This document shows positions 5,822 through 39,225 of a stretch of 39,225 bases of DNA, piece after piece. The notes beneath the pieces are model-generated. The model had not been told where the DNA came from. It was given only the letters and a program-made list of their open reading frames with translations, and did not search any database. The DNA lies in assembly GCA_030950825.1 (NCBI GenBank), contig JAUZQT010000163.1:1-39225 (forward strand), written 5' to 3'. Source of the stretch: Mariprofundaceae bacterium (GTDB taxonomy: Bacteria > Pseudomonadota > Zetaproteobacteria > Mariprofundales > Mariprofundaceae). A program made the translations under genes and the position numbers. The stretch's first letter is position 1. Each line of letters begins with the position of its first letter.

Positions 5822-5993
5822 GGCTAGCCTGAATATTCATAAATCGTTGTGATGATTGCGAAGAACCTTTATCTGGAACGATTTTTTTATAGGAGTGCCG
5901 TACCAATGGATACGGTCGACTGGCAAAGAATTCGTTCCAGATAAAGGGGCAAGCAAGGGCACGATAGTATTTGTGAATTATTCAGGCTAGGGG
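5822..5993. repeat. Imperfect ~170-bp palindrome, MITE-like or structured-RNA-like, in a 515-bp gene-free gap
   Basis: Left arm CTAGCCTGAATATTCATAAAT...CCTTTATCTGGAACGA. The right arm is its reverse complement (TCGTTCCAGATAAAGG...ATTTGTGAATTATTCAGGCTAG). Outer ~22 bp and inner 16 bp match, the middle is diverged, and there is a small central hairpin CCGTA/TACGG. Confidence 0.7.
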
Positions 5994-6136
5994 TTACAAG
6001 GTTGATCACTTCAAAACCATTGCATATTTAATCACTGGGAAACTGGATTTTCCAAAGTGAATCATTACTGCTTACCCACTTAGAATTTAAAAGACCAATT
6101 AATTATTTGACAATGGAATAGTTATGATAACAGAGT

Positions 6137-7228: not shown

Positions 7229-8275
7229 ATCAGGCTTCGGCATTGATGTTTTTAATGATAATCAAAACTCTATAGTCTCATTTAACTGGAAGCTGGCTCA
7301 GTAATTGATCCAGCAACTTTCTGAGCTGATCATCCTGTAGGGATAGCCTGCGAATGCGACGACTGCCGCCGCTGATCGTGGCTAGATCGCGTTGAAATTT
7401 CTCGGCTACTTTGGTTAGCGTGGCCGCCCCTGTTTCCGTGCAGAGCCAAGCGATGACATTTCGCGCCTCCGACGGCTTGTGGGCTCTGCTTTTGTGCTCA
7501 AGCTCCGATGGTTCCAGCTCGTAATGTTCGGTTACCACGCGCACAATATCATCCAGCGCAGGCGGTTTACTGCGCTCTGTTTTTGCTTTGGCGTATGCCA
7601 TTTCCATGAAATCATCGTCACCGAGCAGGCGTGCATCCTTGTTGCGCTGGTGAAAGATCTTGGCGTGATCCTCTTCCATACCAGCCTGAACAAATTCGTG
7701 ATAGCACTCCCTCGCCCGATCAACACTGTCAGCCAACTGCCCCAGCAGGTAGTCTGTTGTCAGCCAAGGAATATGCACGTCACCAAGGTAGGCATTATGA
7801 CCCGACCAATCATAGTCGGAGGCATCTTTCACCATCTCCGCACGTACAGGGTTGAGGTGAATATATCGAATTAAAGCAAGGAAATAGGTGTTTTGATCAA
7901 TCAGGATCGCTTTGAAGCGCCCCTGGAAGAGATGACCGAGTCGTTTTTGCCGAAAGTTGAACCAGCGCGTATAGCGGAACGACAGATTTTGCATAATGTT
8001 GGAGAGCGGCACATCAGACACCTGAATCGCCAGATGCACATGATTGCTCATCAGGCAAAACGCATGCACTCGAAAGCCAAAACGATAGCTCCCCTCCTGC
8101 AACAAAAGGAGAAAACGGCAGCGATCTTCATCCGAAGCAAACACCTCCATACCGCCGTTGCCGCGCAGCATCACATGATAAATCCCGCCATGAACATGAA
8201 TTCGTTGTTGTCTTGCCATGGGCGAACAATAGCACTATCGCAAAAAGAATCAATTCCGAAGCCTGACCCCATTTC
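7229..8275 (-). mobile_element. RAYT-type unit: Y1 transposase gene bracketed by inverted REP-like sequences
   Basis: ATCAGGCTTCGGCATTGAT (7229-7248) and AATCAATTCCGAAGCCTGACCCC (8249-8275) are inverted copies flanking the transposase ORF. Confidence 0.6.
7278..8219 (-). CDS. REP-associated tyrosine transposase-like protein (IS200/IS605 Y1 HUH domain + DnaA domain IV-like HTH)
   Basis: GGIYHVMLRGN, HUH motif SNHVHLAI and catalytic Tyr context LIRYIHLNPVRA. C-terminal ARNVIAWLC...TLTKVAEKF..DLATIS resembles the DnaA C-terminal HTH. Confidence 0.8.
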   Translation of the reverse strand: MARQQRIHVHGGIYHVMLRGNGGMEVFASDEDRCRFLLLLQEGSYRFGFRVHAFCLMSNHVHLAIQVSDVPLSNIMQNLSFRYTRWFNFRQKRLGHLFQGRFKAILIDQNTYFLALIRYIHLNPVRAEMVKDASDYDWSGHNAYLGDVHIPWLTTDYLLGQLADSVDRARECYHEFVQAGMEEDHAKIFHQRNKDARLLGDDDFMEMAYAKAKTERSKPPALDDIVRVVTEHYELEPSELEHKSRAHKPSEARNVIAWLCTETGAATLTKVAEKFQRDLATISGGSRRIRRLSLQDDQLRKLLDQLLSQLPVK

Positions 8276-17558: not shown

Positions 17559-18122
17559 ATGAAAATTCTACAAGATCATAAACTTACGCTGATTGCGGGC
17601 TTTGTCCTTACTGCAATTATTGTGGCTATTGCTGCCGAAACAGGTGGCACTGTCCCCACTATCTTTGAAGGTGCTCGTTGGTTGCATGTGCTTTCTGGCA
17701 TTCTTTGGATTGGCTTGTTGTATTACTTCAACTTTGTACAAGTGCCATCCATGGGTGGTTTCTCTGCTGATTCCAAAGCTGAGTTATTCAAAGATGGCAG
17801 CATTGTCCGTCGCGCCTTGCACTGGTTCCGCATGGGTGCGAATTTAACCTTGGTTTTCGGTATTATCTTATTCGTTGAGCTTGGTGCTGATGCTGGTTGG
17901 GATATTCGTATCGGTGCTTTGTTGGCGATTATTATGTGGGCGAATGTTATGTTCATCATCTGGCCAAATCAGAAGAAAGTGATTGGCATGGTTGAAGCAA
18001 CAGCGGATGAAAAGGCTGCTGCTGGCAAGAAAGCCTTGATGGCATCGCGTATCAATACCTTGCTTTCTATCCCAATGCTATTGCTGATGATTGCATCGGC
18101 GCACTTTCGGATGTTTGCGTAG
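17559..18122 (+). CDS. 4-TM membrane protein, unknown function (possibly related to the membrane domain of PuuD-type proteins)
   Basis: Four hydrophobic helices and the motif WIGLLYYFNFVQVP. Start moved to ATG 17559 (GGAGA 5 nt upstream). The PuuD-like assignment is from memory and weak. Confidence 0.55.
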   Translation: MKILQDHKLTLIAGFVLTAIIVAIAAETGGTVPTIFEGARWLHVLSGILWIGLLYYFNFVQVPSMGGFSADSKAELFKDGSIVRRALHWFRMGANLTLVFGIILFVELGADAGWDIRIGALLAIIMWANVMFIIWPNQKKVIGMVEATADEKAAAGKKALMASRINTLLSIPMLLLMIASAHFRMFA

Positions 18123-30558: not shown

Positions 30559-31839
30559 TCAAACAATCATTCCAGCGCCAACTGTATTATTGGTAAAGCC
30601 ATCAATAATAATAAAGCTGCCTGTCACCCGATTGTCTGCATACGGATCACAACAGAGGGGTTGTTGTAACTTAAATGTGACTTGTCCAATTTCGTTCATC
30701 GCCAAAGCAGTCGCTTCTTCCCGTTCAAGTGAGTGAATGTCGCGTTTAAAGTTCACTTCAGACACCAGTGCCTTCACCTGCGTGGTGGTATGTTTGATGA
30801 TGTATTTCTTGCGATTTTCCAATGCCTCATCACCAATCCAGCATACATTGGCAGTCAATTGTTTCTCGCCTGTTGTCTGCTCGCCAGCATGAACCAACAT
30901 ATCACCGCGCGAAATATCAATGTTATCATTCAACGTAATCGTGATACTTTGAGGTGAAAAGGCCTCTTCCAAATTACCATCAAAGGCAACAATTTCTTTC
31001 ACTGTTGAAGTTTTTCCAGAAGGCATCACCACCAATGAATCTCCCACCTTCACGGTTCCTGATGCAATGGTACCCATAAAGCCGCGATAATCAGGCAAAT
31101 CAGCTGTTTGTGGGCGATTGACCAATTGCACAGGCATACGGAATGGCTTTTCATCCAGATCATCCAAAACGGACATGGATTCCAAGGTTTCAAGCAAGGT
31201 GTCACCCTTATACCAGTCCATCTTATCACCGCGAATGGTCACCATATCACCCGTTAGTGCGGACATGGGTGTGCAAATCAAGTCTTTAATACCTTGCTTG
31301 GCGCAATATTCCTGCATTTCTTTACGAATTTTTTCAAACGCTGCTTGATCATAGTCAACCAAATCCATTTTATTGATCGCAACGATCAAATGAGGAATAC
31401 CCAACAAACCCAAAATGTGGGTATGACGTTTGGTTTGTGGCAAGACACCATGACGTGCATCAATCAAAATAATTGCTGCATTGGCAGTCGATGAGCCTGT
31501 CACCATATTACGTGTGTATTGCTCATGGCCTGGGCAATCCGCCATAATAAATTTACGTTTGGGAGTGGCAAAATAGCGGTATGCCACATCGATGGTGATG
31601 CCCTGCTCGCGCTCAGCAGCGAGGCCATCGGTCAACATCGCCAAATCAATTTCAGCAGCAGAAGACACATGCGTTGTACCTTTTTTCTTGCGCACAGCCA
31701 TCAATTGATCTTCAAATGCGCCTTTGGTATCAACAAGCAAACGGCCAATCAAAGTAGACTTACCATCATCCACACTGCCCACCGTAACCAAACGCAATAA
31801 TTCGATTTCTTTTGTTAGTTCAAAGTTAAATTCAGTCAT
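30559..31839 (-). CDS. cysN: Sulfate adenylyltransferase subunit 1 (GTPase), without a fused APS kinase domain
   Basis: GSVDDGKSTLIGRLL, DCPGHEQY and NKMD motifs. Ends after EF-Tu-like domain III. Start moved to ATG 31839 (MTEFNF...). Confidence 0.93.
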   Translation of the reverse strand: MTEFNFELTKEIELLRLVTVGSVDDGKSTLIGRLLVDTKGAFEDQLMAVRKKKGTTHVSSAAEIDLAMLTDGLAAEREQGITIDVAYRYFATPKRKFIMADCPGHEQYTRNMVTGSSTANAAIILIDARHGVLPQTKRHTHILGLLGIPHLIVAINKMDLVDYDQAAFEKIRKEMQEYCAKQGIKDLICTPMSALTGDMVTIRGDKMDWYKGDTLLETLESMSVLDDLDEKPFRMPVQLVNRPQTADLPDYRGFMGTIASGTVKVGDSLVVMPSGKTSTVKEIVAFDGNLEEAFSPQSITITLNDNIDISRGDMLVHAGEQTTGEKQLTANVCWIGDEALENRKKYIIKHTTTQVKALVSEVNFKRDIHSLEREEATALAMNEIGQVTFKLQQPLCCDPYADNRVTGSFIIIDGFTNNTVGAGMIV

Positions 31840-31858
31840 TTGCAAACCCCATTTGCAC

Positions 31859-31884
31859 CGCTGAGGACGCTGAGGACGCTGAGA
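31859..31884. repeat. Tandem 9-mer (CGCTGAGGA x 2.9) in the cysD-cysN spacer
   Basis: CGCTGAGGACGCTGAGGACGCTGAGA read directly from the sequence. Confidence 0.9.
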
Positions 31885-31925
31885 AAACTCTCTGCGACCT
31901 TTGCGAACTCTGTGGTTAAAAAATT

Positions 31926-32840
31926 TTAGAAATACCCTTCTTTTTTCTTATCTTCCATTGAGTTTGAGCCGTGATCAATGATTCGTGTTTCACGCTCGGA
32001 ACGACGCGCTGCGGCGGCTTCAATCACAATTTCATCCATATTCGTTGCATCCGAGCGCACCGCACCCGTACACGGACTACAGCCCAAGGTGCGGAAACGC
32101 GACATAATCATCTTCGGCGCTTCACCCTCAAGCAATTGATCCTTATTTTCTTCGTAATAAGGAATCAACATCTCACCACGCTCAATCATCGGACGTTCTT
32201 TGGCAAAATAAAGCGGCACAATGGGAATATTTTCATCGCGGATATACGACCAAATATCCATTTCTGTCCAATTTGAAATCGGGAATACACGTACCGATTC
32301 ACCATCATGAATACGACCATTATAAATGTTCCACAATTCAGGGCGTTGATTCTTTGGATCCCACTGACCAAATTCATCACGCATAGAAAACACACGTTCC
32401 TTGGCACGTGATTTTTCTTCATCACGTCGCGCCCCACCAAACGCCGCATCATAACCACCTTCTTCCAATGACTTCAGCAAAGCACCTGTTTTCAATGCAC
32501 CACAACAACGCGCCACACCAAACTCTTTTGGATTCATACCCTTGGCAATGGCATCTTCATTACGTTTCACAATCAAATCTGCACCAATCTCTTCGCAAAA
32601 CGCATCACGAAATTCATACATTTCTTTGAATTTAAACCCTGTATCCACATGCAGCAAAGAAAAAGGCAAGGGTGCAGGATAAAACGCCTTGCGCGCAAGA
32701 TGAACAAGCACGCTCGAATCCTTACCAACTGAATACAGCATCACAGGATTGCGAAATTCGGCCACAACTTCACGGATAATGTGAATGGATTCAGCCTCCA
32801 GTGCCTTCAGCTGTGTTAATTTATGTTTTGACATTTTCAT
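31926..32840 (-). CDS. cysD: Sulfate adenylyltransferase subunit 2
   Basis: PAPS-reductase-fold ATP pyrophosphatase: [39 protein letters not shown]. Confidence 0.95.
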
Positions 32841-32846
32841 AGACTC

Positions 32847-33569
32847 CTAAATTCCATCTCCAGATTCTCCTTCACCTTTCGGGGCTTTTAGCGAACTCAC
32901 ATGCAGACCGCACTCTGCTAAAGTGTCTTTATTTTCCCACCACCAACGACCAGCACGCGGGTCTTCACCCATGCTAATTGCCCGTGTGCACGGCTCACAA
33001 CCAATGGACACATAGAACGCATCATGCAATTTATTGTATGGCAAATCATGTTCACGAATATATGCCCATACATCTTTTTCTGTCCAATTGCGCATTGGAT
33101 TATATTTTTTCAAGCCATACACAGGGTCATCTTCCACAGGCGCAATATCACCACGGTTTTTCGCTTGATCTTTACGCCGCCCCGTTATCCACGCTTCCAT
33201 GCCATGTAATGCTTTTTTCAAAGGCTGAACCTTGCGCACTTGACAACATAGCTTTCGATTTTCCACGGATTTCTGGAATAAATTCACACCATACTCGTGT
33301 ACCATGGCCTGCACCGCACCCGCATCTGGAAAAAGAATATGCAACATATTGCCATAACGCTCACGTAGCGCATCCATTAAATCATACGTTGGCTGTGGTA
33401 AACGACCTGTATCCAATGTCACAATGCGAATGTCCAAATTATAACGACAAATCAGGTCAATCAATACAATACCTTGCGAGCCCAAGCTGCATGAATACAC
33501 CAACTTATCGCCATGCTTATCCTTGGCTTCTTGTAGTAAGGTCACTGCCTCATCCATCAAAAGCTTCAT
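32847..33569 (-). CDS. cysH: Adenylyl-sulfate (APS) reductase, thioredoxin-dependent, Fe-S type
   Basis: SCSLGSQG P-loop-like motif and catalytic ECGLH. The Cys-Cys...CXXC set (KLCCQVRK, GCEPCT) distinguishes APS reductases from PAPS reductases. Start placed at ATG 33569, which overlaps the upstream stop (ATGA). Confidence 0.88.
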   Translation of the reverse strand: MKLLMDEAVTLLQEAKDKHGDKLVYSCSLGSQGIVLIDLICRYNLDIRIVTLDTGRLPQPTYDLMDALRERYGNMLHILFPDAGAVQAMVHEYGVNLFQKSVENRKLCCQVRKVQPLKKALHGMEAWITGRRKDQAKNRGDIAPVEDDPVYGLKKYNPMRNWTEKDVWAYIREHDLPYNKLHDAFYVSIGCEPCTRAISMGEDPRAGRWWWENKDTLAECGLHVSSLKAPKGEGESGDGI

Positions 33570-36064
33570 TGAACCTCCAGTAATGATAATCCAACCACTG
33601 GCCACCAGTATGTAGAGACCAACATAAACAACACCAACGATGATACAGACAAAATCGCACCATATCGCAGCATACTACCGCCATTTAGGTAGCCACTGGC
33701 ATAAATCATAGCATTCGGTGGTGTACTCATCGGCAGCATAAAAGCAAAACCAGCCACAATGCCAATGGTTAAAGCCACGCCCACAGGATCAAGCCCTGCC
33801 GCCATACCCACAGGCATGGCAATAGGCAATACAATCGCCACTGCCGCCGCATTGCTCACACCCTCTGTAAAAAGCAGCGTCATCAGCACCAAAAAACCAA
33901 CCAAAGCCAAGCCCACTATATCCCCAGGAATCAAGCTATCCGCCAACCACACAGCCGCACCTGTATCAGAGAGCGCTTTGCCAATAGCAATCGCACCGCC
34001 ATACATCAACACCACACTCCATGACACATGCTGCTCAATCGCTTTCCACTCCACCAGTCGCAGCACAAACATCAAAACCACCGCAATCAAGGAGATACTG
34101 GCCAGCGTATTCGCATGCCCTGCCAGCATCCATGCCAATACCGTGGATAAAAGCAGGATCGCCATCAACCAGCCTTTGACACCCAATCCGCCCAATTCCA
34201 AACGACGCTGGGCAAAGCGGTTTCGTACCTGATCCAAATCCAATGACACCGATGCAGCCATGCGCATCAATAAGTACAGGGCAACCGATAATACGCCAAT
34301 CACCAATGGCAATGCTGCCAAAGTCCACTCTAAAAATGAAAAGGATTGACCCGTAAGCTCACTACTCAAGGCCAAAGCCAAAGGCCCACGTGCTCCACCA
34401 AGCAAGGTAGTCACACCGCCAATAATGGCTCCCCATGCCAGTGCGAAAAAAATTGCTTGGGCATAAATATGACCTTTTTTCAAATCCAAACTACGCACAA
34501 TTTCCCAGGCTATCGGCAAAAACAATGCCGCCACGGCGTGCTCTGGCATCACACAGGCCATCAAGGCCGGCAACAATAACATCGCGCATAAAAGTTGCTT
34601 GGGAGTATTGGCTACGCGATCCAACATCGCCAAGGCTACACGCTCAGATAAACCGCTTTGCATCACCCCTGCAATCAACATAAAGGCACCAAGAATAAAA
34701 AACACCGCTGGATTGCCAAATAGTGCAAACACATCGGCGGCTGGCATCACCTCCAAAAGCGGTAATAATGCCATACCCAATAGGGATGTAATGGCCAGCG
34801 GCAACAGCTGCGTCACCCACAACACCAAACACAATAAAAAAACCAGCAAGGCATGCCAGCCCTCCGAGCTTAAACCTTCAGGCGCGTTGGATAGAACCCC
34901 CACGAAAAAAGCCAAAACAACCACAAACATGGCGGCAAACGGTGCGGCTTCCGCAGCCAACACACGGTGAAAAGGTCGACGATCAGATTTTTCGCCCTTA
35001 CCAACCCGCAAATGCCTGCGAAAGCTATCTTGCCAACCAGCCCAGCGCCTGCCAAACGATGAAACCACCCAGCGCTCGGATAAAGCAGGCTGCTCACCAT
35101 CCAAAACACGGCTTTCCATCGGTGTTAATACACGCCCCATATCACGCAAACGATGGGTAGGCAAACCTGATGTTTCCAATAACTGATACTGCAATAATAG
35201 GGCTTTCTCAACATCATCCAACGATGGTATTTTTACATCTTGTAAAGGTGTTCCAGGCAAAGGTCGAAAGGGAATCAATAATGGTACAATGCCTTTATCC
35301 ACCAAACTTCTCAAGCCATCTAGGGTTGATTTCAATGGCTCCAGCCCTACAATCAAATGGCTTACCACTGCTCCTGAGCGAAAAACTTTACGCGCATGCT
35401 CTAATGCCTGCCAAATAGCATCCTGACCACCCTGTTGCTGTTTACCTGGGCAAATCTCTGTAAAACACTCCCCATCAAAAACTTCCAAGTTACAAATAAA
35501 AATATCCAAACCCGCTGCATACAAGGCATCAATCACACTGACATCTTTCGGTGCAACCGTTTCTAGGGCAATCTGACGGTGCCCCAAATGCCTGCGGAGC
35601 AAGGCAATCACAGGAATTAAATCCGATAATCCAGCATGATCATTGGCACTGAAACCATTGTACAAGTAAACGGTATCAATTTCACGCTCATTCAAAGCAG
35701 CCAGAACAACTTCAACCAATTCCAAGGCATCACGCAATGGCGGTTTCTCTTCATTCAACATCGAATCAAACTGGCAATAGCCACATGCTTGATTTTCTTG
35801 CGCAAAAAAACCACAGCCCATAAACGGCTGCAAAATCAACAAACGGTCATGCAGAGAAGCAAAACTTCCCATTCGGGAGCCCTTACGTGTCAACTTACTA
35901 TAAAAAGTAGGGGCTTCAACCAGCTCAACTGTTTCCGATTCCCCACCACAGGACATGACAGCCATGCCATTATCCCCTACCTTTAAAGAAAAGCCACTGG
36001 CTTCTGTATACGGCTGACCAACGGGTACCGAACAAAAGTGCCCACTGGGCAGGCGTAAATCCAA
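33566..36064 (-). CDS. Fusion protein: N-terminal Fe-S/radical-SAM-like soluble domain (~350 aa) + C-terminal DASS/SLC13-type anion (putative sulfate) permease
   Basis: One uninterrupted ORF. N-terminal part has CGFFAQENQACGYC (C-X9-C-X2-C) and beta/alpha-like periodicity. C-terminal part has >10 TM helices, GNPAVFFILGAFMLIAG and MSTPPNAMIYASG DASS hairpin motifs. Start uncertain: TTG 36064 without RBS, versus ATG 35965 preceded by GGTAGGGGA. Confidence 0.7.
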   Translation of the reverse strand: MDLRLPSGHFCSVPVGQPYTEASGFSLKVGDNGMAVMSCGGESETVELVEAPTFYSKLTRKGSRMGSFASLHDRLLILQPFMGCGFFAQENQACGYCQFDSMLNEEKPPLRDALELVEVVLAALNEREIDTVYLYNGFSANDHAGLSDLIPVIALLRRHLGHRQIALETVAPKDVSVIDALYAAGLDIFICNLEVFDGECFTEICPGKQQQGGQDAIWQALEHARKVFRSGAVVSHLIVGLEPLKSTLDGLRSLVDKGIVPLLIPFRPLPGTPLQDVKIPSLDDVEKALLLQYQLLETSGLPTHRLRDMGRVLTPMESRVLDGEQPALSERWVVSSFGRRWAGWQDSFRRHLRVGKGEKSDRRPFHRVLAAEAAPFAAMFVVVLAFFVGVLSNAPEGLSSEGWHALLVFLLCLVLWVTQLLPLAITSLLGMALLPLLEVMPAADVFALFGNPAVFFILGAFMLIAGVMQSGLSERVALAMLDRVANTPKQLLCAMLLLPALMACVMPEHAVAALFLPIAWEIVRSLDLKKGHIYAQAIFFALAWGAIIGGVTTLLGGARGPLALALSSELTGQSFSFLEWTLAALPLVIGVLSVALYLLMRMAASVSLDLDQVRNRFAQRRLELGGLGVKGWLMAILLLSTVLAWMLAGHANTLASISLIAVVLMFVLRLVEWKAIEQHVSWSVVLMYGGAIAIGKALSDTGAAVWLADSLIPGDIVGLALVGFLVLMTLLFTEGVSNAAAVAIVLPIAMPVGMAAGLDPVGVALTIGIVAGFAFMLPMSTPPNAMIYASGYLNGGSMLRYGAILSVSSLVLFMLVSTYWWPVVGLSLLEVQ

Positions 36065-36070
36065 TGTTGA

Positions 36071-36199
36071 TTAGGCACTATTGGATTGCGCCAACCAACG
36101 CGAGCTATTGGGCAGGCCATCGGGCAGAGCTAGACCACGGCTCACCAAAGAAAGCTTGGTGCGCCCTGGATTGGAAAAAGGGTGAAGGTCGTTAGTCAT
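36071..36199 (-). other. 42-codon ORF in frame with the downstream fusion gene, separated from it by one TAA
   Basis: ATG 2 nt after the sir stop encodes MTNDLHPFSNPGRTKLSLVSRGLALPDGLPNSSRWLAQSNSA*. The TAA at 36073-36071 is followed in frame, two codons later, by the TTG of the 832-aa ORF. No RBS seen. Confidence 0.25.
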
Positions 36200-36201
36200 G
36201 G

Positions 36202-38544
36202 TTAGATTTGAGAGATCTTCTCCACAACAATGCGCCACTGGCGATCAGAAAGCTGCTCTTTGATATGCACCTTCTGGCCTTGCTCTTCCAAAGATAGCGG
36301 TACATTTTCAATCGGTGCGCCATCATCAAGAATCACTTCCAGTTGCGAACCAATAGCCATTGAAGATAATTTGATTTTCGTTTTTACAAAATTCATCGGA
36401 CAAGCCACACCCGATAAATCCAAAGTCAACACATCCGAAGAGGATTCGCTTTCAGCAACGACTTCCTCAGCCGCTTCACCAGCATCAGGCACAGCAGCAA
36501 AACGTTTATCGGCCAAGACAAGCCATGCGCCTTGCACGTCTTTTAGCTTGGTCACACCCGCCGCAGGCTCTGCCAAATCAATACTCATCAATGCACTTTG
36601 CACAGCATTAAAGCATTGCGTCACTTCGACATCACTACCCGCATGGCTCATCAACAAAGCAAATACTTCAGAGTCATCTTCAGGCGCTTCACCGTAAGCC
36701 ACTAAGAATGCACGTGCTGTAGAAATTGCAGAACGACGCAAGGCTGTTTGCGCTTCTGCCCAGAACATCGCATCGGTATGGGCGCGTGCAATCAACAACT
36801 CATATTCCGCTTCTGAAATCAAGGCATCCGACATCGAAAGTACTGCGCCTGCACATTCGCCTTTTTTATTGCCTTTGGTATTAAAGGCTTCGTTCTCACT
36901 CCAATCGTAAATCAGACCTTCCACTTCGCCCGCATCGGCTTTAAATGGTGCCAAAATATCAGACAGTCCTTCTTTACCCAAACGCTCAGCCCAGTCATGC
37001 ATTGTTTCAGTTTCGTTACGCCCATCTTTATAAGCGTTCAATACCGCAATACCTGCTTCTGGTGCATATTTGGCTGGCACCCACTCCGAAGCAAATGCAA
37101 ACGGTTGCCCCGCCACACCTGAGCCTCCAACATGCAATTGATAATGCGGCACTGGCTGACCTGCGACCTTCTTAGCCATACCATGAAAACCCAAGTCCGC
37201 AATATGATGACGACCACAAGAATGCTGGCAGCCCGATGCCTTCACCGTGATACCTGCCAAGGTTGGATCCTGTTTCAAATCAACCATGAGCGGTTGCAGA
37301 GCTTGTGCCAAACCGCGACTGGAAGTAATGCCCAAACGGCAGGTTTCAGTGCCTGGACAAGCCGTAATATCCGAAATGCCACGCGCAAATGAAGTTGGAA
37401 TACCCGCATTACCAAGCATTTCCACCACATCATCCACTCTTTCAGCATGCACACCGACAATAACCAGACCTTGCTCGGTGGTCACACGCAGCTCTTTGCT
37501 CGCTCCCAAACGTGCTGCTTCAGCTACTGCACGACACTGCAATGGTGTTAAATCACCACGGAACACATTCAATAAAATAGATTTCTTGCCATCATGCTGA
37601 TCCACCACACCACTTTCATTAAATGGCATCGCATCCGTCGGCGTACGCCAATTCGCGTCGCTAAAACCAGCATCATCCTTATGCGTGGATTCAATCACCG
37701 CACGTTGTTTTTTGTACTCTTCAATAAAGCCTTCCGTGCCAAGTTTTTGCATCACATATTTCATACGCGCACGGGCACGACGTTTGCGATCAGAGTACTT
37801 GAAGTGAATGCGCATCAATGCCTCGCCCACCAATAGTATCTCGGATTCTTCAATGAATTCTTCCAATAAAATCGCTTGTACAGGTTGTGAAGACAAGCCG
37901 CCCGCAGCCCAAACCTTAAAGCCAGCCTTGCCATCTTTATGCGTGGCAATAAAACCAATATCGTGCATACCGCCCAAACCGCAATCAGTATCACAGCCAG
38001 AAAATGTCACTTTAAATTTGCGTGGAAACTGCTGACCAAGCGGGTGACGCAAAAAATATTCCGCGAATTTACGTGCATGAATGCTCACATCGGCATGTTC
38101 AGCAGGGCAACGGCCTGCCAAAAAGCACGTCGTAACATTGCGCACGGTATTACCGCAGGCTTCACGCGTGGTCAGGCCGATCCCATCCAATTTACGCAAG
38201 AATGGAACCACATCATCCAGAGATACAAAGTTCACCTGAATATCCTGACGCGTAGTAATATGCACCACCTTCTCAGGTGGTTCCTTTAATGTGCCATCCG
38301 TTGGCAGGCAACCACCATAAGACTCAGCACAATCACCCAACACTTCAAGCTGTTCAGGTGTCAAGTTTCCGCCTGGCAACTTGGCACGAATCATCTGCAC
38401 GCCTTCCTGACGTTGGCCATAAACACCCATTTGCAGACGAAATGGTGTAAAGCGTTCCTCAGCCATGGTTCCAGCTTTAAAGGCTTTGTAACCAGCTTCA
38501 AATTCATCAACATCAGCCGTGTGTGCAAAATCAAATGTCGTCAT
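36202..38544 (-). CDS. sir: Ferredoxin-type assimilatory sulfite reductase (NirA/Sir hemoprotein) with C-terminal helical domain and TusA-like domain
   Basis: Siroheme-[4Fe-4S] motif TACPGTETCRLG...SGCQHSCGRHH and pseudo-repeat EACGNTVRN...SGCDTDCG. The last ~75 aa, LDLSGVACPMNFVKTKIKL...LEVILDD..., match the TusA/SirA fold signature. Confidence 0.85.
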   Translation of the reverse strand: MTTFDFAHTADVDEFEAGYKAFKAGTMAEERFTPFRLQMGVYGQRQEGVQMIRAKLPGGNLTPEQLEVLGDCAESYGGCLPTDGTLKEPPEKVVHITTRQDIQVNFVSLDDVVPFLRKLDGIGLTTREACGNTVRNVTTCFLAGRCPAEHADVSIHARKFAEYFLRHPLGQQFPRKFKVTFSGCDTDCGLGGMHDIGFIATHKDGKAGFKVWAAGGLSSQPVQAILLEEFIEESEILLVGEALMRIHFKYSDRKRRARARMKYVMQKLGTEGFIEEYKKQRAVIESTHKDDAGFSDANWRTPTDAMPFNESGVVDQHDGKKSILLNVFRGDLTPLQCRAVAEAARLGASKELRVTTEQGLVIVGVHAERVDDVVEMLGNAGIPTSFARGISDITACPGTETCRLGITSSRGLAQALQPLMVDLKQDPTLAGITVKASGCQHSCGRHHIADLGFHGMAKKVAGQPVPHYQLHVGGSGVAGQPFAFASEWVPAKYAPEAGIAVLNAYKDGRNETETMHDWAERLGKEGLSDILAPFKADAGEVEGLIYDWSENEAFNTKGNKKGECAGAVLSMSDALISEAEYELLIARAHTDAMFWAEAQTALRRSAISTARAFLVAYGEAPEDDSEVFALLMSHAGSDVEVTQCFNAVQSALMSIDLAEPAAGVTKLKDVQGAWLVLADKRFAAVPDAGEAAEEVVAESESSSDVLTLDLSGVACPMNFVKTKIKLSSMAIGSQLEVILDDGAPIENVPLSLEEQGQKVHIKEQLSDRQWRIVVEKISQI

Positions 38545-38690
38545 CTTGTTTTAACCTCTTAAATGAATGCCATGCTTCAGATTATTTCTGGTTTGTTCGA
38601 GTGCAAAGAGAAAACGCGCAGTGTGCTTTTGCACATGAGCGTTTTTGATGCAGCAATCGGACAAAACAGGGATAAGCTGAATTATGGCCG

Positions 38691-39224
38691 TTATTCGCCG
38701 AATTTTAGTTCGCAAGCTTGTTCGTATGTCACCAAGTCTGTAATCGTCGGATTATCACCACACAACGGACAGCCAGGGTCTTTACGCAACTTCAATTTTT
38801 TCCATTCCATGCGCAAGGCATCAAATACCATTAATTTTCCTGACAAGGAATCGCCAATAGCCAACAGTTCTTTAACCGCTTCCACCGCTTGAATCGTTCC
38901 GACAGCACCTGCCAATGCCCCCAAAATACCAGCTTCCGAACATGATGGAACCAGACCTGCTGGTGGTGGCTCAGGATACAAACAACGATAACAAGGCCCA
39001 TCTTTATGCACATGCGGTTTGTAGGTTGCGACTTGCCCTTCAAAGCGGAACATCGCACCAGAAATCAACGGCTTCTTCTCAAAATAACACGCATCATTCA
39101 CCAAAAAACGAGTTGGGAAGTTATCACAGCCATCGATAATCAAATCATATTCACGGATAATGTCGCGAATATTGTCTTCAGTAACAAAATAGTTATACGT
39201 ATTCACTTTCACATCAGGGTTCAA
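38691..39224 (-). CDS. ThiF/MoeB-family adenylyltransferase (E1-like), C-terminal part; N-terminus lies outside the window
   Basis: DGCDNFPTRFLVNDAC, CYRCLYPEPPP, SCSEAGILG and GCPLCG are typical of MoeB/ThiF. No rhodanese domain at the C-terminus. Confidence 0.85.
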   Translation of the reverse strand: MNPDVKVNTYNYFVTEDNIRDIIREYDLIIDGCDNFPTRFLVNDACYFEKKPLISGAMFRFEGQVATYKPHVHKDGPCYRCLYPEPPPAGLVPSCSEAGILGALAGAVGTIQAVEAVKELLAIGDSLSGKLMVFDALRMEWKKLKLRKDPGCPLCGDNPTITDLVTYEQACELKFGE

Positions 39225-39225
39225 C

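Follow-up and report, generated by a model that had tools for sequence, protein, structure and literature searches.

A sulfate assimilation operon of Zetaproteobacteria with a probable link to carrier-dependent homocysteine synthesis

Why do genes for sulfate uptake and reduction share an operon with an E1-like adenylyltransferase and a TusA-type sulfur-relay domain? The question is raised by the minus strand at 30559-39225 of a 39,225-nt stretch of DNA, hereafter the window, from contig JAUZQT010000163.1 of assembly GCA_030950825.1 (Mariprofundaceae bacterium, Zetaproteobacteria). In Mycobacterium tuberculosis, MoeZ thiocarboxylates the carrier protein CysO, which feeds CysM for cysteine synthesis, and an earlier note on the window had looked to that system, expecting a carrier gene beyond the window end and naming cysM and a JAMM/Mec protease as genes to look for there. 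Related loci do hold a carrier gene upstream of E1, but it adjoins a threonine synthase-like (ThrC-like) gene behind a SAM-I (S-adenosylmethionine) riboswitch, the signature of the MetM/MetO system rather than of the mycobacterial cysteine route. Because of this ThrC-like partner and the riboswitch, we favour homocysteine over the CysO/CysM route, and consider it probable that the operon serves MetM/MetO-type homocysteine synthesis together with an ordinary CysK, both joined to sulfate uptake and reduction.

Genes of the window and their continuation in relatives

The window operon comprises six genes in the minus-strand order E1, Sir-TusA, rSAM-DASS, CysH, CysD and CysN, with a 146-nt spacer between the first two. 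Sir-TusA is a sulfite reductase fused to a TusA domain, and rSAM-DASS is a radical SAM-like Fe-S domain fused to a DASS transporter. Pfam and NCBIfam matches together with sequence motifs bore out the gene order, strand and domain content given in the earlier note, and with them the physical joining of an adenosine 5′-phosphosulfate (APS)-route sulfate assimilation operon to E1 and TusA-type parts. The features are as follows.

38691-39225, minus strand: E1-like adenylyltransferase of the ThiF/MoeB family (PF00899 ThiF, E 7e-44), partial, crossing the window end
38545-38690, minus strand: E1-sir spacer of exactly 146 nt, mostly a long imperfect hairpin at ~38569-38688
36202-38544, minus strand: Sir-TusA, 780 residues (Pfam NIR_SIR, NIR_SIR_ferr and TusA, PF01206 E 6e-19)
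36071-36199, minus strand: conserved N-terminal extension of the rSAM-DASS gene, from comparison with locus L003 and eight relatives
33566-36064, minus strand: rSAM-DASS fusion, an 832-residue open reading frame (ORF; NF045502 180.7 bits, TIGR00785 250.5 bits, PF00939 E 2e-56)
32847-33569, minus strand: CysH, Fe-S-type APS reductase (TIGR02055 237.1 bits against a cutoff of 235.3)
31926-32840, minus strand: CysD, small subunit of ATP sulfurylase (NF009214 455.7 bits against a cutoff of 413)
30559-31845, minus strand: CysN, GTPase subunit of ATP sulfurylase, 428 residues (TIGR02034 552 bits)

CysH, whose start is probably at 33569, where the four nucleotides ATGA are common to the CysH start and the DASS stop, carries the Fe-S cysteine signature that had been read in it (CC at residue 108, CEPC at residue 191 and ECGLH at residue 219). 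CysN aligns only to positions 19-430 of the 632-position bifunctional CysN/CysC model and therefore contains no APS kinase domain, again in agreement with the earlier note. Also as stated there, no cysC, cysK, cysM or cysE was found in the window, either by Pfam scans of its ORFs of at least 150 residues or by tblastn, and the clusters of relatives likewise held no cysC. Judged from its sequence, with the Fe-S cysteine set in CysH and no APS kinase, the window carries APS-route assimilatory sulfate reduction.

The window contains the C-terminal 177 of the ~273 residues of E1, including CYRC and CPLC zinc motifs. The 120 best homologues of Sir-TusA were 74-100% identical and, where named, came from Zetaproteobacteria (Mariprofundaceae, Ghiorsea and Mariprofundus, cultured Mariprofundus species included). 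We took the genomic neighbourhoods of several of these, looked for related fusions in a single genome of each species, and mapped 16 reference proteins onto 88 loci by tblastn (E ≤1e-4, coverage ≥50%). The order in relatives is SAM-I riboswitch, ThrC-like, carrier, NIL, CysK, E1, Sir-TusA, rSAM-DASS, CysH, CysD and CysN. This upstream continuation was present in seven distinct Zetaproteobacterial lineages (L001, L003, L008, L009, L012, L014 and the isolate genome CP018800.1, L088), whose Sir-TusA proteins are 61-90% identical to that of the window; no Zetaproteobacterial locus whose upstream flank was long enough departs from this arrangement, and the partial loci L010 and L011 agree with it over their extent. 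The E1 fragment of the window is 98% identical to the E1 of L003, and the window layout, with no insertion between cysH and cysD, is common to L003, L005 and L008. By these comparisons, the window's own genome very likely continues upstream as its relatives do, and the window probably represents the downstream ~8 kb, or two-thirds, of a ~12-kb Zetaproteobacterial sulfur-assimilation operon.

The ThrC-like enzyme that opens the operon in relatives is a pyridoxal 5′-phosphate (PLP) enzyme of 414-429 residues in Zetaproteobacterial loci, with an extra N-terminal zinc ribbon, and its matches to models and structures of threonine synthase have E values of 1e-54 or weaker; the gene (409-429 residues) lies directly upstream of the carrier gene in L001, L003, L007, L008, L009, L012, L014 and L088. 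The 92-residue carrier has a ThiS/MoaD fold and falls within the CysO family (E 4e-25 to the CysO of M. tuberculosis, 3DWG_C, with about half of the aligned residues identical), so that the earlier expectation of a carrier gene beyond the window end held in all Zetaproteobacterial relatives with enough flank. Its C-terminus consists of AGG plus one residue (K, R or C, two carriers ending in GG-Cys), which implies that trimming is needed before adenylation. Between carrier and CysK lies an 80-residue NIL-domain protein; according to PMC5764234, NIL domains recur in homocysteine synthesis, in the DUF39 plus NIL/ferredoxin route.

The PLP enzyme adjoining E1, a 310-residue member of the PALP family, proved not to be the CysM-type partner named in the earlier note. 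It is a canonical CysK, scoring 453.6 bits with TIGR01139 (cutoff 351) and falling below the cutoff of the CysM model TIGR01138 (263 against 394 bits), and its best solved match is M. tuberculosis CysK1 (2Q3B/3ZEI, E 9e-114), with no CysM in the top 60; the same cluster therefore includes the standard free-sulfide route to cysteine. Full-length E1 in relatives comprises 273 residues and has no rhodanese domain, for which the gene spacing leaves no room, and it matches MoeB, MoeZ and SAMP-E1 models over the adenylation domain only. No rhodanese gene was found at the Zetaproteobacterial loci scanned, and no MetY (Cys_Met_Meta_PP) gene among the called genes of L001, L003, L007 and L088.

All eight Zetaproteobacterial loci that were scanned have a SAM-I riboswitch (RF00162) immediately ahead of the ThrC-like gene, scoring 59-75 bits (gathering score 44.4); within the window, Rfam at the gathering threshold returned one tRNA only. 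In L003, downstream of the aptamer (5892-6018), a hairpin and U-tract at 6066-6090 resemble a terminator, and the next strong terminator, at 17933-17958, lies after cysN, with no intergenic terminator between. Spacings between operon genes in relatives are short or overlapping, down to 0-24 nt (NIL-cysK 1-2 nt, cysK-E1 ~0 nt in L014, E1-sir ~21 nt in L009, Sir-TusA to rSAM-DASS 0-3 nt). By this anatomy, the cluster of the relatives is a single SAM-controlled operon of ~12 kb. Just upstream of the riboswitch in L003 (4957-5727), and also in L005, lies a gene of the inositol-monophosphatase family, which includes CysQ.

The gene order is kept where Sir-TusA is 61-91% identical and also in a lineage at 41% that has Sat for CysDN, and the clustering of the operon genes is far beyond chance. 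This distant proteobacterial lineage (L007; protein cluster 'Proteobacteria bacterium CG1_02_64_396') carries the module in the order Rrf2 regulator, ThrC-like, carrier, NIL, CysK, E1, CysH, Sir-TusA, Sat and a plain DASS transporter. It has no SAM riboswitch, an Rrf2 gene standing in its place, the non-homologous Sat replaces CysDN, and its DASS protein is without the radical SAM domain. That the module persists despite exchange of sulfurylase, regulator and transporter argues for functional linkage of its parts.

Within the window, the E1-sir spacer is wider than in some relatives (~83 nt in L003, ~21 nt in L009) and folds far more stably than its shuffles (minimum free energy −46.6 kcal/mol against −27.0 ± 3.1, z = −6.25). 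The 27-nt apex GCTCATGTGCAAAAGCACACTGCGCGT of its ~120-nt hairpin (38569-38688) is identical to a hairpin apex at L015 6494-6613, which sits in the cysD-cysN spacer of that Ghiorsea metagenome-assembled genome (MAG), and L008 holds a diverged copy of the hairpin at the same place as the window. Because the spacer is filled by a hairpin, because no site resembling a terminator or promoter was listed for its minus strand, and because the apex recurs identically in L015, the gap is probably a small palindromic insertion, not a promoter region or a boundary between transcription units. A regulatory RNA in this spacer was considered and rejected, the spacer being unconserved across Zetaproteobacteria and its fold better read as a palindromic insertion.

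The cysD-cysN spacer of the window (31846-31925, minus strand) is also long, ~80 nt against 0-8 nt in several relatives, and contains a stable hairpin (z = −4.4) and CAGCGTCCT direct repeats, and the spacers of L001 and L012 hold related CACAGAG/CTCTGTG inverted repeats. The apex shared with L015 suggests that the E1-sir hairpin is a small mobile palindromic element, like repetitive extragenic palindromic (REP) sequences or miniature inverted-repeat transposable elements, that lands in intercistronic spacers of the operon. At 7278-8219 (minus strand) the window encodes a 313-residue protein with an IS200-like Y1 transposase domain and a DnaA C-terminal helix-turn-helix. REP-associated Y1 transposases mobilise palindromic repeats, and this protein may be related to the hairpin elements of the operon spacers. 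The remaining window ORFs of at least 150 residues are housekeeping genes (obg, proB, proA, recN, NAD kinase, RNase R, birA, nadC, pnp and others). A gene of the TauE/SafE (sulfite exporter) family lies 30 kb from the cys operon, at 172-1005 on the plus strand (PF01925 E 7e-30).

Two fusion proteins

Sir-TusA consists of a NirA-type siroheme/[4Fe-4S] core (residues 1 to ~540), a five-helix linker (564-681) and a TusA domain (705-776). The linker opens with Cys564 in the motif GECAG (codon 36853-36855), and the TusA domain has Cys715 in CPxN (codon 36400-36402). Among 20 aligned fusions, with identities as low as 27%, both of these cysteines are invariant, along with the siroheme/[4Fe-4S] cysteines 396, 402, 439 and 443. 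In an AlphaFold (AF2) model (pLDDT 84, pTM 0.78), Foldseek matched the Sir core best to M. tuberculosis NirA (1ZJ8, TMt 0.78) and the TusA domain to E. coli TusA (3LVJ_C, TMt 0.83). By alignment and predicted structure, the C-terminal domain is a member of the TusA family, in which both the fold and the conserved active-site cysteine are present. The fold search returned only weak HEPN-like helical-bundle matches for the linker (E about 0.04-0.07), and a function for it drawn from them was rejected. No description of the Sir-TusA architecture was found in the literature searched.

Full-length fusions account for ~55 of the best 150 representatives at 50% identity, with named examples in Nitrospirota, Nitrospinota, Poribacteria, Spirochaetota, Opitutaceae and deltaproteobacterial MAGs. 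Ten Nitrospira-type loci (L016-L018, L021, L023, L025, L029, L032, L061 and L063) share the order Sir-TusA, CysH, an intervening gene, CysD and CysN and contain neither E1 nor carrier; in L017, L018 and L021 the cluster follows an Rrf2 gene. The intervening gene, identified in L018 only, is a TrpD-like Glycos_transf_3 member and was rejected as a sulfur-relay part. All six unfused Sir homologues inspected (P0149, P0151, P0168, P0179, P0187 and P0223; 569-590 residues) end at GEC(A/S)x, which indicates that the tail cysteine is native to this reductase clade and that the helical bundle and TusA domain are an add-on. This conserved cysteine, third from the C-terminus in the unfused homologues, resembles the C-terminal arm of DsrC. 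An unfused Sir also occurs in a Parvicellaceae (Bacteroidota) MAG (L065 10001-17193), followed ~2 kb downstream by a CysK/M-like gene (34% identical), a ThiS-like carrier ending in GGSK, an E1 and a CysH-like gene; here, too, genes of sulfate reduction stand together with a carrier system.

Some relatives carry further relay genes. A DsrE2-family gene and a stand-alone TusA lie between cysH and cysD in L001 (15699-16410), L009, L010 and L015, and neither is in the window; in CP018800.1 (L088 3467-5481) the DsrE2 and TusA pair lies divergently upstream, adjoining a gene for an Mrp/ParA-type Fe-S assembly ATPase.

The second fusion, rSAM-DASS, was confined to Zetaproteobacteria among the 88 loci, and no discussion of it was found in the literature searched. 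Its N-terminal Fe-S domain is a variant radical SAM domain by the 'variant_rSAM' model NF045502 (180.7 bits against a cutoff of 125). It departs from the canonical CxxxCxxC motif, having C84-x9-C-x2-C instead, and this triad is conserved in nine Zetaproteobacterial sequences. The DASS part is presumed to be the sulfate importer. In relatives the Sir-TusA stop and the ATG of rSAM-DASS are 0-3 nt apart, and the protein has a 45-residue N-terminal extension that is conserved as coding sequence in eight of them. The window retains the ATG at 36199-36197; an in-frame TAA at 36071-36073 (codon 43), where L003 has GAA, breaks the extension, and the ORF resumes at TTG 36064. The TAA could reflect a sequencing error, or the gene may truly be truncated, with translation restarting at TTG 36064; it could also mean that the extension is not needed. 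In the Zetaproteobacterial MAG of L012 (10996-13311), rSAM-DASS is followed directly by cysD, with no cysH between.

Proposed route and its alternatives

In the route that we propose, sulfate would enter through the DASS domain, as its context suggests. From their family assignments, CysDN would convert sulfate to APS, the Fe-S CysH would reduce APS to sulfite without a 3′-phosphoadenosine 5′-phosphosulfate step, and the Sir core would carry out the six-electron reduction of sulfite. Part of the reduced sulfur would pass to CysK for cysteine, likewise a family-level assignment, and the rest to the carrier, whose last residue would be trimmed by an unlinked protease before E1 adenylates it on the way to the thiocarboxylate. 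The MetM-like (that is, ThrC-like) enzyme would then combine carrier thiocarboxylate and O-phosphohomoserine to give homocysteine, a step that we propose because of the gene adjacency, the riboswitch and the precedent of Streptomyces MetM/MetO.

The least certain step is the transfer of sulfur to the carrier adenylate. With no rhodanese domain in E1, the foremost candidate donor is the TusA domain fused to Sir, acting with Cys564. A TusA-to-E1 hand-off is made attractive by that absence, by the two invariant cysteines of the Sir extension and by the DsrE2 and second TusA of some relatives, but is no more than plausible. In one conceivable and chemically simple cycle, sulfide would open a Cys564-Cys715 disulfide, the resulting persulfide would attack the adenylate, and the second thiol would free the thiocarboxylate.

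Several points weigh against the proposed route. The parts upstream of E1 lie beyond the window end and are known from relatives only. The ThrC-like enzyme may be a genuine threonine synthase (TIGR00260 271.8 bits), its family matches being generic threonine synthase models, and MoaD or ThiS may be substrates of E1, in addition to the carrier or in its place. The JAMM/Mec protease that the earlier note had named was not found at any locus within 10 kb, though the carrier needs C-terminal trimming; a JAMM-motif scan of the window and seven loci gave spurious matches only, and there was no Pfam JAMM match either. As to the sulfur hand-off, a sulfite reductase gives sulfide, not sulfane sulfur, and a TusA persulfide needs extra chemistry. 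Moreover, Sir-TusA in Nitrospirota, Nitrospinota and Poribacteria (~20 loci) sits in cys clusters without E1 or carrier, and the TusA domain therefore has a more general, E1-independent role.

These points lend different weight to the alternatives. A cysteine route of the mycobacterial CysO/CysM/MoeZ/Mec style, in which E1 would thiocarboxylate a CysO carrier that feeds a CysM-type sulfhydrylase, fits a carrier that is a close CysO homologue, the two carriers whose GG-Cys ends resemble a CysO-cysteine adduct, and the PALP-family gene that lies two genes from the carrier and directly before E1. We nevertheless hold it to be quite improbable: the sulfhydrylase is CysK-type by both family models and by its best solved match, the first gene of the operon, which is under SAM control, is the ThrC-like one adjoining the carrier, no Mec gene was found within 10 kb, and E1 has no rhodanese domain. 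It is also unlikely that E1 is a general MoeB/ThiF enzyme for molybdopterin and/or thiamin synthesis, placed in the operon only for co-regulation of sulfur supply. Its top family models are indeed MoeB (NF006444 415 bits; NF004281 317.8 bits against a cutoff of 266), as is its best solved match (E. coli MoeB, 1JW9). A single MoeZ serves several carriers in actinomycetes, which counts in favour of such a role, although service to several carriers is compatible with a methionine role as well. The earlier note's view that E1 stands outside any moa or thi cluster was upheld, no moa, moe or thi genes being found within 10 kb at any locus, and E1 is clustered with a CysO-family carrier both in Zetaproteobacteria and in the distant L007.

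A real, if somewhat doubtful, possibility is that there is no protein sulfur channel. Sir would then free sulfide that reaches CysK and, non-enzymatically or directly, the E1-bound carrier adenylate, and the TusA domain would be for enzyme protection, regulation or delivery to other acceptors. The ~20 loci with Sir-TusA in clusters without E1 or carrier fit this, the canonical CysK in the cluster implies available free sulfide, and the HcyS/HcyF proposal for Wolinella succinogenes, as cited in PMC5764234, offers a precedent. On the other side, E1 lacks the rhodanese domain of its closest family model (PRK08762, matched at positions 121-384 only), the two extra cysteines of Sir-TusA do not vary among the 20 aligned fusions, even at 27% identity, and DsrE2 and a second TusA are inserted in the same operon in some relatives; taken together, these features suggest that the operon handles bound sulfur. 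Sulfite reduction itself might also be carrier-bound, with Sir-TusA handing a protein persulfide to the rhodanese-less E1-carrier adenylate and perhaps to CysK, a reading to which we give little credence. Cys715, aided by Cys564, would here take the sulfo group from CysH as a thiosulfonate or, alternatively, capture partly reduced sulfur at the siroheme, and the unfused relatives ending in GECAx would use their tail cysteine much as the DsrC C-terminal arm is used with DsrAB. If this were true, there would be no build-up of free sulfite or sulfide in an iron-oxidising, oxygen-exposed cell.

Known counterparts and significance

The homocysteine route that we favour has its nearest counterpart in Streptomyces albulus, where, as PMC12172450 and 10.1101/2024.10.14.618325 (citing Hasebe et al. 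2024, Appl Environ Microbiol 90:e01247-24) describe, the ThrC homologue MetM and the carrier MetO convert O-phosphohomoserine to homocysteine, metM is preceded by a SAM riboswitch, and the conversion depends on MoeZ and Mec. The likeness is one of architecture. Common to both systems are a ThrC-like enzyme adjoining a carrier of the CysO/MoaD family, a SAM riboswitch ahead, E1 activation and maturation of the carrier C-terminus; here, by contrast, the whole sulfate uptake and reduction pathway and cysK are in a single operon, E1 is without a rhodanese domain, unlike MoeZ, no Mec gene is nearby, and NIL and Sir-TusA are added.

Krishnamoorthy and Begley in 2011 (J Am Chem Soc 133:379) reportedly described a methionine cluster of W. 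succinogenes (HcyS/HcyF/HcyD/MetY) in which carrier and E1 stand with sulfate-to-sulfide genes. The Zetaproteobacterial operon has in common with it the carrier and E1 alongside sulfate reduction genes, the one extra residue at the carrier C-terminus and, as proposed here, the homocysteine product, and differs in having a ThrC-like enzyme instead of MetY, no HcyD-type JAMM protease in the cluster, a Sir with TusA, and a SAM riboswitch. With the mycobacterial CysO/CysM system it shares a carrier about half identical to CysO and E1-dependent activation, and NirA/SirA of M. tuberculosis is the closest solved relative of the Sir core; it differs in its CysK-type sulfhydrylase, its rhodanese-less E1, the Mec gene that was not found, and the added riboswitch and ThrC-like gene. 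Compared with the TusA/DsrE2 relay of sulfur oxidisers and with E. coli TusA, the TusA fold and active-site cysteine are the same, as is the DsrE2 and TusA pair in some relatives, whereas in the operon a helical domain with a second invariant cysteine connects TusA to an assimilatory sulfite reductase in one fusion protein. The operon is a variant of the known thiocarboxylate-linked sulfate assimilation clusters with two uncharacterised fusion proteins, set apart from the MetM/MetO, HcyS and CysO/CysM clusters by its rhodanese-less E1, NIL protein, Sir-TusA and radical SAM-like/DASS fusion.

Annotation of the ThrC-like gene as 'threonine synthase' and of the Sir-TusA gene as 'sulfurtransferase TusA family protein' probably misleads. 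Sir-TusA, found in several phyla and in about a third of the best 150 representatives at 50% identity, and the radical SAM-like/DASS fusion are two uncharacterised proteins, and the combination of a rhodanese-less E1 with a Sir-fused TusA is a natural system in which to study how sulfur might reach carrier adenylates without a rhodanese. If the proposed route is true, marine iron oxidisers would make homocysteine by the recently described carrier-thiocarboxylate route, and everything from sulfate uptake through cysteine and homocysteine would stand under one SAM riboswitch.

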